A stretch of 64,000 bases of DNA from a bacterium (GTDB lineage Bacteria; Hinthialibacterota; Hinthialibacteria; Hinthialibacterales; Hinthialibacteraceae): contig CAXXSM010000076.1 in NCBI GenBank assembly GCA_963663405.2, positions 96,001 through 160,000 of the forward strand, in the 5' to 3' direction. Under the pieces are notes generated by a model. The model was not told the DNA's origin. It saw nothing but the letters and a program-made list of their open reading frames with translations, and ran no database searches. Of this stretch, positions 9,959 through 38,800 are shown piece by piece; position 1 is the first letter of the stretch, and every line of letters begins with the position of its first letter. Position numbers and translations under genes: made by a program.

Positions 9959-12505
9959 TCACTCCCCACAACCCACCGACACCTGCACCCCACCGCCATT
10001 CGCCGTATAAAACAACCGTCCATTCGACGCATACGCCCCAACGCATTCCAACACATCCACCTGCGGGCCTGTGGATATCAATTTTGCGTTATCCGACAAA
10101 TCGTAGAGGTCCATGTTCGAGCCAATCAGGTATGGTTCTGAAATGTTGAAGCGGGTGCAGTTGTATCCCTTTGTTAATGTCTTTACAATCTTGCCGGTTT
10201 CTTTATCCAGTAAATAGCCGTTTTGATATTGCGCATGGGTGAAGAGATGTTCTTTCCCGATCGTGATCGCATGAATGGCGCCGAGGACCGGATCGGATTT
10301 CCAAACCAGAGAACCATCGCTGGCGTCAAGACACCATACCCGGTTGGTTTTTCCTTCGACTGGGTTGTAGCCGCCGAGATAGAGCCGTTTGTCCTTGCCT
10401 GTGATCGTGCAGCCCGCATGGACAGTGTATTCAACCGTCGACCAGAGAACTTCTCCATCCTCCGGCTTCATCGCCAAAGTGACGCCTTTCGCGTTGGGGA
10501 AGCCCCGGCGCGTTTTGGCTGAATCGCCGAAATAGCAGGAATAATAGAGAACGCCATCCATCAGACAGATCCCCACGTCATCCCCCCCGGCGCCGTATTC
10601 CGAGAAATCCTTGGTCCATAACACATCCCCCGTGTCCACATTCCACGCGCGCAGGAGTGGTTTATGATCCTTCGGGAATCCAAAAGTGCTCTGATGCTCG
10701 AACAGCCACGATTTCCCAGTAAATTTCCCCGTGCTGAATGGATAGAACGCCATGTTTTTATAAATAATAGGCGGCATTTGGCGGTTCCAACTTGGTGAGC
10801 CGGAAAACGGCGCTTCCCAAATTAAATTCCCCGTCTCCGCGTCCAGGCAGCGCAGCATGGATTTCTCAATCCCCGCCTGCGGTACTAAAATTCGCCCTTC
10901 GTAATACACCGGCGATGTGAACGAGACGTGCACACCCGGCCAATATCGCCTCCATAGCAAACGCCCCGTCTCCTGTTCGACCGCGAAAATCTGCCCTTCG
11001 GCTGTGTGGGTGTAGATCCGCCCTTCCCCACAGACGGAGAAGTGTTTGACCGTTCCTTTGTATTTCCGGATCCATTTCATCTTAAATGGCGGTTTGATTC
11101 CCTGTTCGTTGGCGTTTGAATTCGCCCAATCGCTGAAACTGGTAAAACGGTTGTATTTCGCATCCGTTTTCGATCCTGTGAGCGGACTTCGAATCCGCCA
11201 AAGTTCAAGATCTTTCTGTGGAAGCGGTTCCTCCCCATCCGGCCCTAATCCATACAAATATCCATCCTCACACCCAAAATACACCCGCCCGTCACAAACC
11301 GCGGCGGGCGCGGTAATCGCCTTCCCAAACGCGGTTTTAAATGACCAGACCTCCCCTTCTCCAGAAAGCGGAACGATATAAAGGCTCCCATCCAATCCTC
11401 CATAGATCGCCTGATCGCACAACAAAACCGGCGCCGCGATGGAGGGATATCCCCCTAAATATTGTGTTTCTTTCTCCGCCGAATGTTTACACAGCCCAAA
11501 ATTCTCTTCCGGACGGCAGCGGTACACCACGCCCTCACGCGCGCTTACCGAACTGAAACTGAGCGACCACGGAAGATCATTCCACGTCTTCGTTCCTGGA
11601 ACCTCGCTCTTTTCCACTTCTCCATTTCGAAATCGGAGCGCGTCCACCGCTCCCCGGTTGTCCCGCCGGTGCCACTGCCGGTAGATCGTTCCATCCTTAC
11701 TAATACTCAAACCCAACGTCGCGGGGCTTTCGCGGTTTGGATCGTTAAGAGCGTAGACTTTACGAACAACCGGCGCGTCGCCCGAATCTTCCAGCCACGC
11801 GAGCGATCCCCCCGCCGGGAGAACGAGCGTTTTCTGGTAGACCGCCAGATTCCGGACACAACAGAATTGATCTTCCCACGTCACCCGTCCATTCTTATGC
11901 TTGAGCCAATCCGCCCCACTCCAGCGGTTCCCCTTGAATCCCATCGTTTCTTTGACGAAATCCCACGTCCAACAGACTGTGCCATCCGGTTCGAGAGCGT
12001 ACACCTTCGAACCCAGCGTGGCGAAATATACACGGCCGTTCGAAACGGCGGGCGCGCTGAAAATCGGCTCTCCACAGACGATCTGTTTAATTACGCTTCC
12101 ATTCACCTTGTCCAGAACATAGTAATATCCAGTCATCGCGCCGAAATGAAGATATCGCCCTGCAATGGCCGGTGATGAAACATTGCTGCAGTTAGCAGCG
12201 CCACCAGGGCTTTGAAATTTCCAAATCAATTCCATCGTTTCCGCATTAACGCAGAACGCCGCTCCCGATCCATCCACGATGTACACTCGCCCATCCGAAA
12301 CGGCCGGCGCCGTAAACGCTGCGTCCGTCAATGGAACCGCGCCAAGTAAGCCCAATGGTGTACGAACGCTCCGATCGGCGGCGCCGCCCGAATGACCGGA
12401 ATCGAATTTGAATTGTGTCCAATCTTCTCCATAAACGGTAGAGAAACATAGTAAAGATAAAACAATTGAGAAACTGATTGTTGTATAAACAAATCGCGCC
12501 ATCAT
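9959..12505 (-). CDS. Secreted PQQ-like beta-propeller repeat protein (two propellers)
   Basis: Signal peptide then EDWTQFK. Many SSPA/APAV..GRVY..G.LY.LD..TG..IW repeats. Confidence 0.88.
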   Translation of the reverse strand: MMARFVYTTISFSIVLSLLCFSTVYGEDWTQFKFDSGHSGGAADRSVRTPLGLLGAVPLTDAAFTAPAVSDGRVYIVDGSGAAFCVNAETMELIWKFQSPGGAANCSNVSSPAIAGRYLHFGAMTGYYYVLDKVNGSVIKQIVCGEPIFSAPAVSNGRVYFATLGSKVYALEPDGTVCWTWDFVKETMGFKGNRWSGADWLKHKNGRVTWEDQFCCVRNLAVYQKTLVLPAGGSLAWLEDSGDAPVVRKVYALNDPNRESPATLGLSISKDGTIYRQWHRRDNRGAVDALRFRNGEVEKSEVPGTKTWNDLPWSLSFSSVSAREGVVYRCRPEENFGLCKHSAEKETQYLGGYPSIAAPVLLCDQAIYGGLDGSLYIVPLSGEGEVWSFKTAFGKAITAPAAVCDGRVYFGCEDGYLYGLGPDGEEPLPQKDLELWRIRSPLTGSKTDAKYNRFTSFSDWANSNANEQGIKPPFKMKWIRKYKGTVKHFSVCGEGRIYTHTAEGQIFAVEQETGRLLWRRYWPGVHVSFTSPVYYEGRILVPQAGIEKSMLRCLDAETGNLIWEAPFSGSPSWNRQMPPIIYKNMAFYPFSTGKFTGKSWLFEHQSTFGFPKDHKPLLRAWNVDTGDVLWTKDFSEYGAGGDDVGICLMDGVLYYSCYFGDSAKTRRGFPNAKGVTLAMKPEDGEVLWSTVEYTVHAGCTITGKDKRLYLGGYNPVEGKTNRVWCLDASDGSLVWKSDPVLGAIHAITIGKEHLFTHAQYQNGYLLDKETGKIVKTLTKGYNCTRFNISEPYLIGSNMDLYDLSDNAKLISTGPQVDVLECVGAYASNGRLFYTANGGGVQVSVGCGE

Positions 12506-12769
12506 CGATCCTCCCCATGCTAACAGTTTTATAGTGAAATAAAGGATTTTTCATCATATCATAAAAGATTGTCTCGAATATAGCGCTCTCGCCACGAGAA
12601 GAATTCACTCGTATTGGCATTGCCGTATTTTTCACAAGGAAATACCCTATAAGGTGTCCAAATCAATCCACCCTTGTTGATTCTCTTTTTGGATTTCTAG
12701 TGATGGGAGTGATGATTCCCGATTGGGGAGATTTAACGATGGATGGAATAAACAATATGAGGTGCAGTC

Positions 12770-13336
12770 ATGCGGTATTTCCAAAAAGGTTTCACACTGA
12801 TTGAATTGCTCATTGTCGTCGCCATCATTGGAATTCTCGCGGCGATCGCCGTGCCGAATTTTCTGAACGCCCAGATGCGGGCCAAAATCACCCGCGTAAA
12901 AGCCGATTTCCGGGCGATCGACACATCGTTCCAGAGTTATATGCTCGATAATAACCACTATCCGCCCGATGTCGGTGGGCCTTGCGAGGATGTGCTCGCG
13001 TATTATCGGCTTACGACACCGATCGCGTATATTTCAAATCTCAGCGTTTTCAAGGATTATTTTACAAACGAAAATCCGGAAGGCGCGATCGGCGCGGCTT
13101 GCGAGTTTAACTATTATGATTATGGAATGGTTCCCTACATCACCGAATCTGGCGTGGGTTACGTTGTCATCAGTTTTGGCCCGGACCGGGATCTGGATAT
13201 GGGCTGGAACACAAATTCAATGGACGCGTTGAAACGAAATGACGCCCCCAATTTATCGTTCTTATACGATTCATCGAACGGCCTTATTTCATCCGGCGAC
13301 CTGATCTTAACCGGTCTCGGCATCCACAATAAATAA
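12770..13336 (+). CDS. Pilin-like protein (paralog 2)
   Basis: KG|FTLIELLIVVAIIGILAAIAVPNFLNAQMRAK class III signal, GAGGTG SD, LTTPIAY, FGPD and YDSSNGLISSGD. Confidence 0.95.
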   Translation: MRYFQKGFTLIELLIVVAIIGILAAIAVPNFLNAQMRAKITRVKADFRAIDTSFQSYMLDNNHYPPDVGGPCEDVLAYYRLTTPIAYISNLSVFKDYFTNENPEGAIGAACEFNYYDYGMVPYITESGVGYVVISFGPDRDLDMGWNTNSMDALKRNDAPNLSFLYDSSNGLISSGDLILTGLGIHNK

Positions 13337-13551
13337 ATGGAGCGCGAGCGTCTCGCCCGTGACTTAGCGGGCGCCCCACCTGTAACTTAGTGTAACTTAG
13401 CGGGTACCCAGGGCAAGGCGTTTTTTCTACCCTAACCTAAATCCCGCAAACCTCCCACTAATCCCCTCCATCATGTTTTCACGGATACCCACGGCAAGTA
13501 CCGACGCTCGCGCCGGAGCCTTTGCGTTTCCTCTGCCCTGGCCTAAATCCC
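13337..13551. repeat. Mosaic (BIME-like) cluster of REP-B and REP-A copies
   Basis: ATGGAGCGCGAGCGTCTCGCCCGTGA (13337), TGTAACTTAG x2 (13381-13400), REP-A at 13400-13445, and an interrupted REP-A at 13482-13551 containing the inverted REP-B core GACGCTCGCGC. Confidence 0.75.
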
Positions 13552-14433
13552 TCATTCTGTACACTCCATCACCACACGGAAACCAAGGCTATAATGAAAA
13601 TCGATCTGCTGTTCAAATCCACGGGACGCCGACCGGTTTTTGTCTGGGGGATTCATTGTACTGCCGCCTCGGAAAACACGAGACGTTAATGGCAAACTCA
13701 ACATGGACAAAGGCCCTTTCGGATCAATCTGCGCGCCACGTTCGCAAGGCTCCTGCCACTGGTCCGAGCACCATTCCGCCACGTTACCAAGCATGTCATA
13801 CAATCCCCAGGCATTCGGCTCTTTCTGACCCACTTCCATCGCCAAGTCCGAATCCGTGTTTCGCCGGCTCCACATATAGTCATCCGCATTGTCCGCGGAA
13901 TCGCCGAAGAAGAAGGACGTGTCCGTTCCCGCCCGGCAGGCGTATTCCCATTCCGCTTCCGTCGGAAGCCGGAACGTCCCAAGGTCTTTTTTATTCAGCT
14001 TCTTGATGAACGAACTGCATTGGGACCACGAGAGTTTCGTTGCGGGAAAATCCGGCCCAATGGCGATATGTTTTCTTTTTTGAAAGGGATTTTGTTCTGT
14101 CACCGCTTCCCATTGCCCTTGGGTGAACTCGTATTTCCCCATATAGAACGGCTTGGAGATTGTCACGGTATGCGGCGGCCATTCCCGATTCGAACGTCCA
14201 CACTCGTCTTCCGGCGAACCCATCGTAAACGTCCCGGCGGGGATCAATACCATCTCCAACGCCTTCGCGTCATCCGGAAGATTCGGCAAATCAATGGTAA
14301 TCGTCTTCTCCAGAGCGTCCGCTTCAGCCTCCGATCCGCAGGATAGGGCAAGCAGGAGAAAGATCAGTATACCGATGATTCCATAGAAAGAAAAAAACTT
14401 GATCGCGAAATGCTTTAGGGCGGCACAGTTCAT
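13552..14433 (-). CDS. Formylglycine-generating enzyme (SUMF1/FGE-sulfatase) family protein, probable lipoprotein
   Basis: IPAGTFTMGS, FRLPTEAEWEYACRAG, PNAWGLYDMLGNVAEWC, RGGS and LGFRV motifs. LALSC lipobox-like sequence. Confidence 0.92.
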   Translation of the reverse strand: MNCAALKHFAIKFFSFYGIIGILIFLLLALSCGSEAEADALEKTITIDLPNLPDDAKALEMVLIPAGTFTMGSPEDECGRSNREWPPHTVTISKPFYMGKYEFTQGQWEAVTEQNPFQKRKHIAIGPDFPATKLSWSQCSSFIKKLNKKDLGTFRLPTEAEWEYACRAGTDTSFFFGDSADNADDYMWSRRNTDSDLAMEVGQKEPNAWGLYDMLGNVAEWCSDQWQEPCERGAQIDPKGPLSMLSLPLTSRVFRGGSTMNPPDKNRSASRGFEQQIDFHYSLGFRVVMECTE

Positions 14434-32918: not shown

Positions 32919-33830
32919 TTACATACGCTGACAGTATTCTTTCCATACCTTCAGTGAGCGTTCCATTTTGCCTGTGATGTCTCCTTCGAAACCATATCCT
33001 TGGAAACCGAATGGGCCTGTATATCCAAGGCGGATGAAGGTTCTGACGAAGGCTTCAGTGTCGTAGTCTCCTTCGCCGAGAGGCAGGATGCCATCCGTCA
33101 CCTTTAATTCCGAGGCGTTTTGGAGGGAACCGTTAATTGTGACGCAATTCAATTTCGGGAGCGCGAGTTTTGCTTTCTTCTCCAGGTCTTTGGGGCCTTC
33201 CACATACAGCCAGTGGAAGAGATTGAACGTGCATCCCAGATTTTCCCGGTCCACGTGAAGCGCCAGGCGCAGCGCGTCTCCTATTCGTTCCGCCCAGAAA
33301 TTGCAATGGGGGTAGATTGAGATCCGTAGCCCATTTTCCTTGCCGAGATCCGCCGCTTCCCGGAGAATGGGGATCGCCAGTCTGTCTCCCGCGGGATCGG
33401 AGGATTTGTATTTCCGGCTTATTAGTGAGATCCAAAGGATCGCCCCGCTGCCTTTTAACAATCCAATCAGGTCTTTGATCCATTGGGGGAGGATTCCCGC
33501 ATCGATCTCGATTGTGGAATAGACCGTGATTAGATCGATCCCTTTCCGCTTCATTGTTCGCAATGACTCCGGGAATTCTTTAAAACGTTTCTCGTCATTT
33601 CCAATGGTATAGTCATAGCGGGGATTCCCGATGCGTTGAAGCCAATCGGCGATTTGCGCGGCGCTTAAATCGCTTTTGAAGAATCCAGCGCTCATGATAA
33701 AAAAGCGGTCACAGAGGGGAACGACTGTTTCTTTGGCTTTGGACGCTGGCGGCGCCCAGACGGTAGCGGCGAGTCCCGATCCAGCGAGCAGCGATGTTCG
33801 CAAAAATTGACGGCGCGGTTGTTGATTCAT
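32919..33830 (-). CDS. Tat-exported xylose-isomerase-like TIM barrel protein
   Basis: PRRQFLR Tat motif. IYPHC, TFNLFHW, LPLGEGDYD and GYTGPFGFQ. Confidence 0.82.
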   Translation of the reverse strand: MNQQPRRQFLRTSLLAGSGLAATVWAPPASKAKETVVPLCDRFFIMSAGFFKSDLSAAQIADWLQRIGNPRYDYTIGNDEKRFKEFPESLRTMKRKGIDLITVYSTIEIDAGILPQWIKDLIGLLKGSGAILWISLISRKYKSSDPAGDRLAIPILREAADLGKENGLRISIYPHCNFWAERIGDALRLALHVDRENLGCTFNLFHWLYVEGPKDLEKKAKLALPKLNCVTINGSLQNASELKVTDGILPLGEGDYDTEAFVRTFIRLGYTGPFGFQGYGFEGDITGKMERSLKVWKEYCQRM

Positions 33831-34009
33831 TGGATTCGATCTCCCTGTTTTTTGTCGATTGCCTTGTTCATAATGACTCAATATACCATAGGAAAAACGA
33901 GAAAAACAATAGCTGGAATCGATCGATGTTTTTTCCTTGCTTTTCACACAACCTTTTTTGATCGTTCACCGTTAAAATAGTAATGCGATTGAGTCTGGTG
34001 GAGGTATTC

Positions 34010-35818
34010 ATGATGAAATGTATTGTGGTAGTCCTATTATTGTTTTCTGTTGCGGGTATGGGATGGTTTGTTGATCCTCCCAGCGTGAACGCGGCGGAAG
34101 AACCGGCGGGAACGGAGGAATTCCAAGACGATCCAGCCGCGCATGCGCTCTATGACAAGATGGTGGAAGCGATGCGGAGCGCCGAGAGCCTCTATATTGA
34201 AAGTGAGTATCAAGATGAGGCGAAAGGCGAGGTATACAGCTCAGGCATGTATAAAATCTGGTTGAAAAAGCCGAATTACTTCCGGATGGAGGTATTCCCT
34301 GGTGGGGATACTTCGCCGAAGGGAATTCTCGTTGGAGACGGAGAAAATTTGTGGATTTATTGGCCGAATGGGAAACCCCGCTATGGTTGGGAATCTAAAG
34401 GAGAACGCGCCGAACTATATGAAAAACATAAAAACACCTTCTATATGACGAAATACTGCGCCAATGGAATGCACTCCATCAGTCACGAAGCGTGCTGGCT
34501 GGGTATGGGGATGACGGTTCTCGATCCGAGCACGTTTCACGGTTATACCGATTCCCTCCAAGATTACATCGATGGAGTCCAAAGCATGGGAACGGAAACC
34601 GTTGGGGGGGAGGAATGCGAGATTATTGAAGTCAGCATCATGAAACACCAGCGCAGCTGGATTTTATGGATCGCGAAGAAAGATACTCTCCCCCGTAAAT
34701 TGAAGCAGATTGTCCGCGTCAGCTACGATATTATCATGCACGAACAGTGGACAACGCTGAAGATCAATTCCGAAATGGACAATCAATTATTTGTCTGGAA
34801 ACCGGGGGAGGATTGGCTCGAGTGGAAGAAGCCTCCGATCGAAGAAGGACTGCTCAAAAAGGGTACGATGTTTCCTGATTTCGATCTCGCTTCGATTGAT
34901 GGGGGGCGGATCCGGTTGTCTGACTATAAGGGGAAGATCATTTGGTTCTATATCTTCCGCGCTGGTTGACCGGCGTGCCGTGAGGAGATAGGGAGTCTCC
35001 AAAAAATATATCAAACTTATAAGAAAAAAGATTTTGTCGTTCTAGGATTCAACCGGTCGGATAGTAAACAAGTGGCGGATCAATTTCTCATGGAAAACGG
35101 CGCGACGTTTCCAACGATCCTCGACACATCCGATGATGCAATGAAACTCTCAGGCGAAATGGAATCGATTGGCATGAGCGCCGTTCCATTGACGTACATC
35201 ATCGGTAAAGACGGCCGGATTATCGACGCGTGGTATGGGTACCGAGGGAATAACGAGTCCACCGTTGTTGATTTTTTTAGTAAGGATGTGACGCTCAAGG
35301 GGAACATTCAATTCGTGGATGATGAGTATACGGTTCCGCTTCGCGGGGAGTGGGAATTCGCTGAGGATATGATCCAACAGAACGATCCGAACGCGAATCC
35401 GGCTTCGTTGATCTTTCAACCCGTGATTGAAAAAGGTGATTTCGTCTGCAAAGCCCGGATCGACGATGGAACCGGGGGCATCCGGATTCTGTTGAATTAT
35501 CAAAAACCGACGAACTATTTTGTGTGGAATATCGGCGGGGAAGAGAACTCGACCATCTCGCTCGAACAGTGGAACACGCTCGATGGGGATTATTCGATCT
35601 ACATCGTTCTAAACGATCTCGAAGATTTTACGTTTGAGCGTGGAATGTGGCACTCGATCCGTGTAACCGTTGATGTCAAGGGACGGATGATTGAAGGATA
35701 TATCGACGGTCAGAAATTGCTTGAATTTAAAACGAAATATTTAAAACCGAGTCAATTTGGATTGGGCACATGGCAGACAAACGCTGCGTTTAAAGCGGTT
35801 GAGATGAATGTTTATTAG
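34010..35818 (+). CDS. Exported LolA-like + TlpA-type redoxin (UxxC) + jelly-roll fusion, probable selenoprotein with UGA readthrough at 34967-34969
   Basis: ORFs 33983-34969 and 35072-35818 are in frame and joined with no other stop: PDFDLASIDGGRIRLSDYKGKIIWFYIFRAG-U-PACREEIGSLQKIYQTYKKKDFVVLGFN...VPLTYIIGKDGRI. Confidence 0.85.
34984..35000 (+). promoter_or_regulatory. Candidate bacterial SECIS hairpin
   Basis: GGAGAT-AGGGA-GTCTCC stem-loop with a G-rich loop, 14 nt after the in-frame UGA. Confidence 0.6.
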
Positions 35819-35834
35819 GGCTCAATTTTATTCT

Positions 35835-38800
35835 TCACCAATACCGTTTTCGTAATGTTACTTTTTTATAGTCTTTGTTTATATCAAAGAGTTCTTGGAG
35901 TGGTTTGAGATAGGGGCTTTCGGCGGGGGATTCATTGTTGATGGTTTCAATTGTTATGGTGTTTACCGGCGTGAAGGCCCGTTCGAGCATATCTTTGAAA
36001 AGTGAGTAATATTCAGGCAAATGAGAATCGTTGGGAGTTACTTTGATATCTAGATCTTTGCCATTGCGGCGGGAGATCATGACAAGTTGTTTACCGTGGT
36101 AGACAAGATGATTTGCGGGACGCCGTTCGGGTAGATTGTATTCGAGGCCCTCTACTGATACGCCGCAGAGGGATGCGGGATCGTTGGCGTTGATCCAAAA
36201 AATCGATTCCTCCGAAAGCCCGTTTTGCAGCGCGCGCAGGGCGGTGGATGAGATGAACTGCAAACCGGGAATTCCTTCAAAGAAACATCCCGCCATGATT
36301 TCTCCTGAAAGTTCCATCAGCCGCAGCGCTTTGAATAATGCGCCCCAGCGCAGCGCGGGCCGTTCGCGTATTAGCAATGTCCGGAAAAGAATCCCATATC
36401 GATCCAATAATAGCCGTACGCGGTCTTTCAGGCGTTCAAGTTCTTCTACGGCGTCCTGCGCGGGAGTGGGTGGATCGAGAACATACCAGTTGCCTGCGAA
36501 GGGCCGTGACATCTTCCAGCGGCTGAACGCTGCGCGGCGCCCGCCTCCATTGATTTGAGATAAATCGCTGGCCTGAAATTGATTCTCCACTCCTTTACGT
36601 AATGATCCAAACGAATCGTTGGTTACTTTTCCCTGCCAGACCAAATCCCATAACGCGTTGGTCAGGCTCGCGGAATCCAGGTTTGTGTGATTCAGCAATT
36701 GTGAGAAATCATACTTGCCTTTAGGATCGGGAAAGATCGTTTCTAAAGAGATTGAATTATTCGTTTCTTGTGTATTGATTTTTCCAGCAGGATCATTTTT
36801 GTTCCCACCGTTCTCTTCGATAAATAAATCCAATTGATCGTGGAAGCCGATGGTGACTTTCTCTTTTCCGCAGCCAATCCAGGCGAGATTGGTTTCCTGC
36901 ATGAGCGTGTCCATCGATGATGTGGAATAGGCGTTTATCCGGGCGGGGAGGAATTCACGTTCCCAAAGTTCTGGACTTGCTGGATAGGCGAAGAGTTTTT
37001 CGAGAGCGTATTGCAGGTGTTCCAGCGTATCTCCTTTTCGGGCGATTCCTTGATGAGACGCCAGGAAGAGTGGCAGCGCTTCGGGGGGGGAGTGGATCGA
37101 AATGGGGGATCGCTTCTTTCCTGGTGAGACGGAGTAGGATTTCCAAATTCTCGCTATCACATATTTCCTCTTCTGTACAACCGGCGCTGATCGAGCCGAT
37201 GACAACCCGTTCTGTTTCTACAAGTGTATCCAGCGCGGTGTTTAGACTGGATTCGGAGATCCCTAATGTTTCGAGAATGTAAGTTTTTGTAACTGGTCCG
37301 TAATATTGCAGCCATTGCCCCAGCCAATCGGCGAAGGGATCGCTGTCTTCTGAAACTGTTTCGTAGGGAGGTAGAGAACTTACAATTTCATTTATTGGCA
37401 GTTCTCTTTGATTGATTAGTGAATTGATTGATATCTGCGAACGGTCTATCTGTAGAGATGTAATGAACCGCGGAAGTTTTTCTAATGCGGTAATAGAAGC
37501 CGGCGTGTTTGCGGACCATCTGATCCACGCTATTTTCGTGTCTAATGTTTGTATTGTCTCACTGGGTTGGATTGAATGGTCTTTTTCTATCGCTTGAAGA
37601 AGGGCGATCCATTCGGCGCGTGGTATTAACAGGCGTTCTTTGATCCAATCCAATAGATCCACTGTCGTTCGTGGAGAGTAGCCGGGAAAAGTACGCTTTG
37701 CTTTCTGTTCAAAACGCTCGATCAATTCCCGCGCAATCTCCGGCCGTAAATCTTGTGAAAAAACCGCCTGTTTGATTAGATCATCGCGTAAATTCGAAAC
37801 GGCGCCGGCGGGAGAGTCTTCTTTATACATGAGCTGGTTGGTCTGCCGCCATAGAAGCCCTTCGGTGAAGGGGGAGGGAACATGGGTTGCGACTTCCGTG
37901 ATGGTGATTTCGCCTATGTGGATTTCATCCAATAGTTTTTTCAGTGTATTCAGGTCAAACTCATCCCGCAGACACCCACGCCATGTTTCCATGAGAATGG
38001 GGAAATCTTCATATTGAGTAATTGTGTCCAGAAGTTTTTTTTGAACGCATCCTATTCAGCCAAAGGGGCGTCCGCCGGTCGAAGGAATCGCGGGGTAAGA
38101 GCAGCGCCCGCGCGGCGTTTTCGCGAAACCGGGCTCCAAAAAAACCGCTTCGTTCCAATTTCTGTCGCAGCAACGATTCTATATCTTCCGCGCGTAGAGA
38201 AAGGAGGAATTCTTTAACAGGGAAATCATAAGGCGGAATGATCGCGATGGCGTCGTTGTGAGGCAGAATTTTTAGCTCGCTTCGATTTGTGTTTTCCCAT
38301 AAGGCGGAGAGCGCCAGCGCAAAAGGATAATTGACTTTCCCGCCCCATAATGTATGCAGAATCACCTGTGAACAGTTCTTATCACCGCCGGGAAACTGGG
38401 TGTATTCCACCAGCAAATTATGGCGATGTGGCAGCCCAGTTCCAGATGCTTTTTTTTGTTTTCGTAAAAAGAGAATCAGCGATCTTGCCGCTGTCTCTTC
38501 CATGCAATAGTCATGAATTAGTGTTTTTTCGAATCCAGAATCTTGAAGATTACTATCCGCTGTTTCGAGAAAGAGACTGATCTTTTCCGCAAGGTGGAAA
38601 TCGCGGTTGATCTCTTCCGCGATCCAAAACGGCGCTCCTTCTGTGGTTCCATCACTCAGCGCCGCGATGACGTCGTTGTGGGTGATCTGGTGGATTTTCC
38701 AATTTTGCGCGCCGAATGTGAACACATCACCTGGTTTATGTTCCCAGACAAATTCTTCGTCCAGTTCTCCAACCTTGGTTCCTGTGTCCCGGCGCCGCAG

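Follow-up and report, generated by a model that had tools for sequence, protein, structure and literature searches.

We analysed a 64,000-nucleotide stretch of bacterial DNA (hereafter the window; positions 96,001 to 160,000 of contig CAXXSM010000076.1, which is contig C76 of an 8.44-Mb assembly of 170 contigs that is 82% complete) and found that positions 34010-35818 very probably form a single gene for one exported protein of 602 residues, in which the UGA at 34967-34969 would be decoded as selenocysteine (Sec, or U). Under translation table 11 the locus reads as two open reading frames (ORFs), one of 328 amino acids (33983-34969) that ends at the TGA, and one of 248 amino acids (35072-35818) that by itself has zero Pfam matches. 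The codons around the site run TTC CGC GCT GGT TGA CCG GCG TGC CGT GAG GAG, giving the peptide F-R-A-G-TGA-P-A-C-R-E-E. With the TGA translated as U, the frame extends from the ATG at 34010 to the TAG at 35816-35818 with no further stop and places U at residue 320; this agrees with the first-pass annotation, which had described a frame open into the next ORF, with about 602 residues and Sec near residue 320. The open frame 3′ of the UGA comprises 282 codons, and the nearest alternative start lies 34 codons downstream of the UGA. The start at 34010 is preferred over the ATG at 33983 because of the GGAGG just ahead of it. The features that define the gene are:

34000..34004, plus strand: Shine-Dalgarno-like GGAGG, 5 nucleotides 5′ of the ATG at 34010, read from the sequence
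34010..35818, plus strand: predicted complete selenoprotein ORF, 602 amino acids with U320 and a TAG stop, from the translation; the genome search reads the same frame with one internal TGA
34967..34969, plus strand: UGA as predicted selenocysteine (U320), at the first, nucleophilic Cys position of CxxC, from the sequence, homolog codons and the ResA alignment
34976..34978, plus strand: TGC for Cys323, the putative resolving Cys of UxxC, from the sequence; the column is Cys in 72 of 75 aligned homologs that reach it
34984..35000, plus strand: hairpin of the selenocysteine insertion sequence (SECIS) type, GGAGAU/AGGGA/GUCUCC, with a 6-base-pair stem and a 5-nucleotide loop, from the fold, the 14-nucleotide spacer after the UGA and covariation

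The first-pass annotation had put the UGA exactly where the first Cys of a TlpA-type CxxC belongs, and we found that this is correct: in a phmmer comparison with the PDB, U320 and C323 align with the active-site Cys pair of ResA (3c71, E 9e-15), and the cis-Pro VP/LP loop is aligned as well. A protein search of a 5.8-billion-protein collection returned 310 matches, of which the best 120 were analysed. At the U column, 62 of these 120 homologs have CxxC (typically WRVGCPPCREE), 45 stop exactly one residue before it, finishing in ...WRAG or ...WRCG, and 13 carry another residue (SxxC in 3, ExxC in 3, the rest singletons). The shortened homologs bear the source names ‘outer membrane lipoprotein-sorting protein’ or ‘DUF2092 domain-containing protein’. 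Standard annotation does therefore divide genes of this kind, as had been anticipated, since 45 of the 120 are annotated as proteins that end just ahead of the UGA.

At the codon level, we scanned a single representative genome for each species and obtained 79 loci. Seven of them (L048, L087, L092, L110, L113, L114 and L115) were excluded because the site aligned poorly or not at all; L110 is a partial tblastn match to the query. The codon at the U320 column in the 72 usable species-representative loci is TGA in 49, TGT or TGC in 17, AGC or AGT in 4 and TTG in 2, so that Cys and UGA alternate at this column. Record titles assign most TGA forms to Planctomycetota (Thermoguttaceae, Pirellulales, Planctomycetaceae, Phycisphaerae/Sedimentisphaerales) and Verrucomicrobiota, and list Zixiibacteriota, Krumholzibacteriota, Stahlbacteria, Riflebacteria and Ignavibacteria among the Cys forms. 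Judged by these codons, the Sec form is commoner than the Cys form in genomes labelled Planctomycetota or Verrucomicrobiota. The protein had been called an unusual selenoprotein, which is overstated, as TGA is the majority form in a large DUF2092-redoxin family. Within a set of 60 related genomes there is a single close ortholog, in genome G009, with 51% identity over residues 17-418 and one TGA in the context ...WRCG-U-PACREEIGSLQ; its locus L020 duplicates L061, and the pair was counted once.

Some members of the family deserve mention in their own right. L059 has, at about 850-860, a second TGA two codons 5′ of the Sec codon (WR-U-G-U-PAC), at a position that is Cys in one subgroup (WRCGU), and may be a double-Sec site. 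L021 (1408-2115) is an internally deleted gene copy in which residues of about 37-168 are joined directly to those of about 386-418 at the repeated GMGMS / IGMSAVP, so that the redox site is gone. Just 3′ of the TGA-form gene, L107 (4502-5776) encodes a second AhpC-TSA/Redoxin protein of family-like size (425 amino acids), and the two genes are a possible tandem paralog pair.

The hairpin GGAGAT-AGGGA-GTCTCC that had been noted 14 nucleotides past the UGA is indeed present at 34984-35000. For its comparison we aligned 50 UGA sequences (the window and 49 others, giving 47 distinct rows) without gaps over 45 nucleotides, leaving out L051, which has a 1-nucleotide insertion. A 7-pair helix, columns 18-24 with 28-34, is paired in 96% of the cells, and double-sided changes occur in three of the seven pairs (A-U to G-C in 2 rows, U-A to C-G in 9, G-C to A-U in 2). 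The covariation score was matched by none of 500 shuffles, and registers shifted by 1-3 columns pair only 26-71%. The stem is retained though the peptide that it encodes varies (EEIGSLQ, EETGSLQ, EEMCHLQ, EEMRHLQ, QEVVYLQ), and protein constraint alone is therefore insufficient to account for the hairpin. At least six of the seven pairs are kept in 49 of 50 TGA loci versus 7 of 23 non-TGA loci; the seven include both TTG forms (L101 and L102), which look like recently decayed Sec genes, going by their codon and hairpin. The AGGGA loop is of the small, G-containing apical type that is given as a trait of bacterial SECIS elements in parts of PMC1088965. An Rfam scan of 34900-35100 gave only a chance match (eiav_FSE, 9.8 bits against a cut-off of 40, E 6), so the hairpin falls outside the curated Rfam families.

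The same genome holds a second UxxC redoxin ORF, on contig C117 at about 11800-13900, minus strand, whose redoxin motif is AWW-U-LYC; its N-terminus is signal-like and its C-terminal part has a CNDTIC motif. It has a 7-base-pair hairpin exactly 14 nucleotides after its UGA and is a second candidate selenoprotein.

Next we examined the Sec machinery of the genome. Contig C22 carries a tRNA-Sec (69 bits against a cut-off of 47; anticodon tca by ARAGORN), together with selA (531 bits), selD (342 bits) and selB (250 bits), each above its cut-off; selD is fused to a CMD/AhpD-like domain. The machinery that the first-pass annotation had proposed to look for is thus present in all four parts, with the reservation that selB is split over two frames, to which we return below. 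The order of genes in C22:29000-52000 is tRNA-Sec, selA, an HGD-D family gene, the selD fusion, three large proteins and finally selB; L118 is the part C22:29000-48000. The large proteins (701, 636 and 682 amino acids) have an N-terminal AhpC-TSA domain; T2SSG/DUF1559-like parts are present in two, and a lectin domain 38% identical to that of the window protein in one. Reassignment of the genetic code was considered and rejected, as TGA is the stop of 38% of the long open frames (1322 of the 3494 with 300 codons or more). selA was found in three of three other TGA-form genomes tested. Selenocysteine formate dehydrogenase, sought in the genome as an independent marker, gave only weak matches below the cut-off.

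Sequence support was drawn from Logan contigs, with a mean word depth of about 2-3. Two runs (X1 and X2) from one sample, probably the source of the assembly and hence not independent, match without a single difference, and 34390-35408 is covered by an ungapped X1 contig. A run from another study (X3) provides a contig of about 97% identity over 34117-35244, with 34 differences, none of which is at 34967-34969 or 34984-35000. The TGA is accordingly kept in the contigs of both the probable source sample and an independent study. The local sequence by itself is insufficient to exceed chance, and the case against chance is carried by the comparative data. Collectively, the Cys/UGA alternation, the covarying hairpin, the Sec genes and the TGA in the other-study contig make the selenocysteine reading a strong one.

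We then asked what the protein may be built of. Its three folds are arranged as follows:

34010..34093, plus strand: predicted signal peptide of the Sec (secretion) type, with MMK, a hydrophobic core and VNA/AEE; n-, h- and c-regions by eye
34142..34810, plus strand: DUF2092 domain of LolA-like fold, residues 45-267; Pfam PF09865, 33.8 bits against a cut-off of 21.2, and AlphaFold2 (AF2) with predicted local confidence (pLDDT) >95
34862..35287, plus strand: ResA/TlpA-like thioredoxin-fold redoxin with the U-P-A-C site, residues 285-426; Pfam, phmmer and Foldseek
35297..35815, plus strand: ConA-like lectin beta-sandwich (CBM66/DUF1080-like), residues about 430-602; AF2, Foldseek and PDB profile

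The three folds that had been named at first pass (LolA-like, TlpA/ResA-like and ConA-like sandwich) are all correct by Pfam, Foldseek, phmmer or profile comparison, and the motifs KKPNYFRME, GDGENLWIY and LWIAKKDTLPRK are found in the translation. The N-terminus is signal-like, as had been read; in the AF2 model residues 3-15 are helical, and confidence is low from there to about residue 40. For residues 40-420, AF2 with a 121-row alignment gives pLDDT >95. By Foldseek the DUF2092 domain superposes on LolA chains (8orn_A; 4ki3_L; 8v1k_A; target-normalised TM-scores, TMt, of 0.66 and 0.70 for the first two), on RseB (3m4w) and on 3buu of the LolA superfamily. The LolA family models themselves score below their cut-offs (PF03548 13.3 against 23.6; TIGR00547 15.5 against 112). 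Near-invariant polar residues among the 120 homologs are R92, E94, H159, R215, R229 and R236. C203 in this domain was considered as a third redox Cys and dropped: the position is Cys in 112 of 120 homologs, and because the eight exceptions are Y, F, L or A it is probably a buried structural position. In the redoxin, AhpC-TSA (PF00578) matches residues 285-405 with 76 bits and Redoxin (PF08534) scores 57 bits, the two together covering 283-413, and ResA superposes with a TMt of 0.84-0.88.

The C-terminal domain had been likened to DUF1080. A ConA-like, CBM66-type sandwich is what both fold and profile give: the AF2 model with 35 homologs has a pLDDT of 93.9, Foldseek returns the CBM66 chains 4b1m and 4azz (TM-scores by query and target, TMq/TMt, of 0.71-0.80; E 3e-10), and the profile against the PDB matches 4azz (E 2.3e-8), with weaker matches to 4jqt and 3imm. 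The Pfam part of the likeness did not hold for the window domain itself, with 3keto-disac_hyd (PF06439), which we take to be the family formerly named DUF1080, at 14.9 bits against a gathering cut-off of 26.8, and DUF6250 at 14.9 bits. Homologs of the domain match PF06439 strongly.

The DUF2092-redoxin core is widespread, and most homologs end 103-120 residues past U as two-domain proteins; we saw no fusion to the lectin outside this lineage. A different C-terminal module of about 100-140 residues, ending in ...LDWHLQKxP and without similarity to the window lectin domain, is found in L045, L049, L062, L067, L076, L085, L097 and L108 (and in L066). A search of 1.84 billion representatives for relatives of the lectin domain gave 153 at E <= 1e-3, and at least seven of the top 27 (P0127, P0129, P0135, P0137, P0139, P0141 and P0143) are exported-looking proteins with an N-terminal AhpC-TSA/thioredoxin domain, often with PDZ. 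The 682-amino-acid paralog in the sel locus of C22 has the same AhpC-TSA plus lectin arrangement. Since at least seven relatives and this paralog share it, redoxin and lectin form a recurrent pairing in the lineage. Long N-terminal extensions occur in P0102 (996 amino acids, with a BlaR1-type peptidase M56 membrane domain) and P0097 (806 amino acids), and M56 proteins adjoin three loci (L040, L069 and L101), which hints that, in a subset of the family, a signal transducer has this module as its outer sensor.

In the window the gene stands alone, with two xylose-isomerase-like TIM-barrel genes upstream and an Lhr helicase gene downstream, all on the minus strand. The Lhr-type gene (35835-37992) is covered by two overlapping frames, 35835-37205 and 36955-37992, which suggests a further assembly indel. 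A survey of the neighbours of homologs found 134 ORFs, of which 52 upstream and 46 downstream on the same strand were scanned; these are heterogeneous, with BlaR1-M56 proteins beside the three loci just mentioned, and a conserved operon partner was rejected on this account. A promoter and terminator scan of 33700-36000 gave counts no better than shuffles.

How might such a protein be made and used? By the established bacterial pathway, SelB with Sec-tRNA(Sec), parts known here by sequence alone, would bind the coding-region hairpin 14 nucleotides 3′ of the UGA and bring Sec to the ribosome. The product would hold a U320-P-A-C323 redox centre in a thioredoxin fold of the ResA/TlpA type. Its N-terminal selenolate would attack a disulfide or sulfenate in an envelope substrate, Cys323 would resolve the resulting selenenylsulfide, and the centre could be re-reduced by a membrane shuttle of the CcdA/DsbD type encoded elsewhere. 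We infer from this an extracytoplasmic disulfide reductase; export, the direction of electron flow, the substrates and the roles of the flanking domains are proposed in the same conditional sense. The DUF2092 LolA-like half-barrel, always attached in the family, would most likely select or hold a substrate or partner, and the lineage-specific lectin sandwich would most likely tether or target the enzyme to an envelope or environmental glycan.

The first-pass annotation had gone further and coupled lipoprotein or lipid handling to thiol redox. This is so far an analogy at the level of the fold, with LolA models below cut-off and no lipid or lipoprotein link in the gene neighbourhoods scanned. 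A joint reading in this direction, in which the LolA-like cavity with its invariant Arg, Glu and His captures an envelope lipid, an acyl chain or a lipoprotein N-terminus and the fused selenolate reduces it, is one that we consider unlikely. Under it the protein could be, for example, an extracytoplasmic repair enzyme for lipid hydroperoxides or lipoprotein thiols, functionally akin to GPx4, with the lectin pinning it to a glycan. If true, there would be a selenium-dependent envelope repair common to Planctomycetota and Verrucomicrobiota that annotation has overlooked.

Several observations weigh against selenocysteine decoding or its proposed use. The lone hairpin is weak, with a z of -2.1 for a 71-nucleotide stretch that 7 of 200 shuffles fold equally well. 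It also overlaps the conserved coding stretch R-E-E-x-x-x-L-Q, and since Cys forms keep residual pairing (7 of 23 non-TGA homologs), part of its signal is shared coding sequence. selA is also found in two of two Cys-form genomes tested and is thus non-discriminating, the scanned neighbours on the same strand (52 ORFs upstream, 46 downstream) include no conserved CcdA/DsbD, and the support from sequencing data consists of contigs. The weakness of the lone hairpin and the default table 11 reading would suit a UGA that is a true stop, with 33983-34969 and 35072-35818 as separate genes, or a TGA that is an error for TGC or TGT. We find this scarcely credible: the thioredoxin fold would be cut in the middle of its active site, the conserved open frame continues past the TGA with the next start 34 codons on, and the TGA recurs in 49 independent species-representative loci as well as in the contig of another study. 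Another objection is selB, which in the assembly is divided between two frames near C22:49675 (C22:49539-49700); model positions 1-46 match in another frame than positions 50-580, with a stop closing the first of these frames. Were the break genuine, Sec insertion would fail in this organism, and the gene would be a relic of a decaying Sec system, with translation ending at 34969 and leaving a LolA-like fragment only. Decayed relatives of the gene do occur (L051 with its insertion after the UGA, L021 with the redox site deleted, and L101 and L102 with TTG at the column and the hairpin retained). Even so, tRNA-Sec, selA and selD are intact, 282 codons stay open 3′ of the UGA, and the second UGA-redoxin with its matching hairpin is intact too. 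The selB break is explained more simply by a 1-nucleotide indel from sequencing or assembly, which is also probable, because the nearby Lhr gene is also split between frames and the contig word depth is only about 2-3. We therefore rate a relic as quite improbable.

The fused form of the protein meets its own objection at the junction of redoxin and lectin. P0122 (194 amino acids), which is the lectin ORF of a relative with 94% identity, starts at the junction in another frame, which fits the +1 frame of the window plus a 1-nucleotide insertion near 35243-35248; the redoxin would then end after WYGYRRE. Another contig gives frameshifted pieces at the junction. On this evidence the protein could be a two-domain one (DUF2092 plus redoxin), with the lectin a separate overlapping gene and the in-frame join an artefact of an assembly indel. 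It accords with this that neither the best 120 homologs nor the 72 usable loci include a case with this lectin after the redoxin, and that a metagenome scan with residues 330-602, which gave 201 pattern matches, had no relative among them. The X1 contig, probably from the source sample, nevertheless covers 34390-35408 without gap or difference. Two-domain homologs run about 20 residues beyond AWYGY, and the split form would lose the AF2 helix at 415-426. A split lectin ORF would be without a signal peptide. The nearest relatives of the lectin are C-terminal parts of AhpC-TSA/thioredoxin proteins, and the 682-amino-acid paralog is built likewise. We favour a native in-frame fusion because the redoxin has its final helix (415-426) past the site of the indel and a separate lectin ORF would be without a signal peptide, and we consider the two-domain form unlikely.

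Taken together, these results document a large and systematically mis-annotated family, with 45 of the best 120 homologs cut at the Sec codon. The compact SECIS geometry (14-nucleotide spacer, 6-7-base-pair stem), which recurs in the C117 gene, could aid selenoprotein finders for Planctomycetota and Verrucomicrobiota. The understanding of Sec decoding is unchanged by the finding, whose value is that of an annotation fix.

Most common among the predicted selenoproteins of bacteria are the UxxC redoxins. They have been in print since 2004-2005 (PMC1088965, PMC13188914), and standard selenoproteome entries include the ‘Prx-like thiol:disulfide oxidoreductase’ (PF00578) and one called ‘thiol-disulfide isomerase-like’ (cd02966), according to parts of PMC13188914 and to Table 3 and text of PMC1088965. 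These two UxxC families were predicted by Kryukov and Gladyshev in 2004 and in the Sargasso Sea survey, as given in parts of PMC1088965 and PMC13188914. As described there, they share with the window protein the AhpC-TSA/redoxin fold, the UxxC, the Cys homologs and the small G-loop hairpin 3′ of the UGA. By the same partial descriptions, what sets our family apart from them is that a DUF2092 domain of about 230 residues always precedes the redoxin, to which the window protein adds the lectin. The available text of the review PMC13188914 mentions neither LolA, lipoprotein, Planctomyc nor signal peptide, and a literature search gave no selenoprotein paper with DUF2092 and, by listed titles, none relevant for selenocysteine plus LolA. 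The family may already stand, unnamed, within the published redoxin selenoprotein categories. The redoxin selenoprotein models of NCBIfam share the thioredoxin fold and a U in or beside the redox motif, and score far under their cut-offs (TUGYCR NF053656, 25 against 100; SelL-related NF040769, 18 against 120; WAxxUGC_long NF041054, 15 against 300); the family is not covered by a curated NCBIfam model.

Likeness to ResA, TlpA and CcmG (DsbE) is close in fold, with matches to ResA 3c71 and 1st9 (25-26% identity) and to DsbE 3gl3, an aligned CxxC pair and cis-Pro loop, and an export signal that we infer for the window protein. It is not a ResA or TlpA equivalog (ResA NF002854, the top NCBIfam match, 64.3 against 170 bits; TlpA NF047696, 30.6 against 230): Sec takes the place of the first Cys, and the window protein would be a soluble multi-domain protein, whereas ResA and TlpA are single membrane-anchored domains. 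Unlike ResA, TlpA and CcmG, it has no cytochrome c maturation genes or CcdA adjoining its gene. With the LolA/LolB/RseB superfamily the protein shares PF09865 above cut-off and a predicted fold that superposes on LolA, RseB and 3buu; unlike LolA, it scores below the family models and has many invariant polar residues, and evidence of lipoprotein carriage was not found. The lectin domain matches CBM66, the levan-binding module of Bacillus subtilis SacC, and the DUF1080 sandwiches in fold, at a sequence identity of only 13-14%, and its subfamily sits mostly on exported redoxin and PDZ proteins, not on glycosidases. What is new is thus an architectural variant, and both the principle of the UxxC redoxin selenoprotein and the mechanism of Sec decoding are already known.

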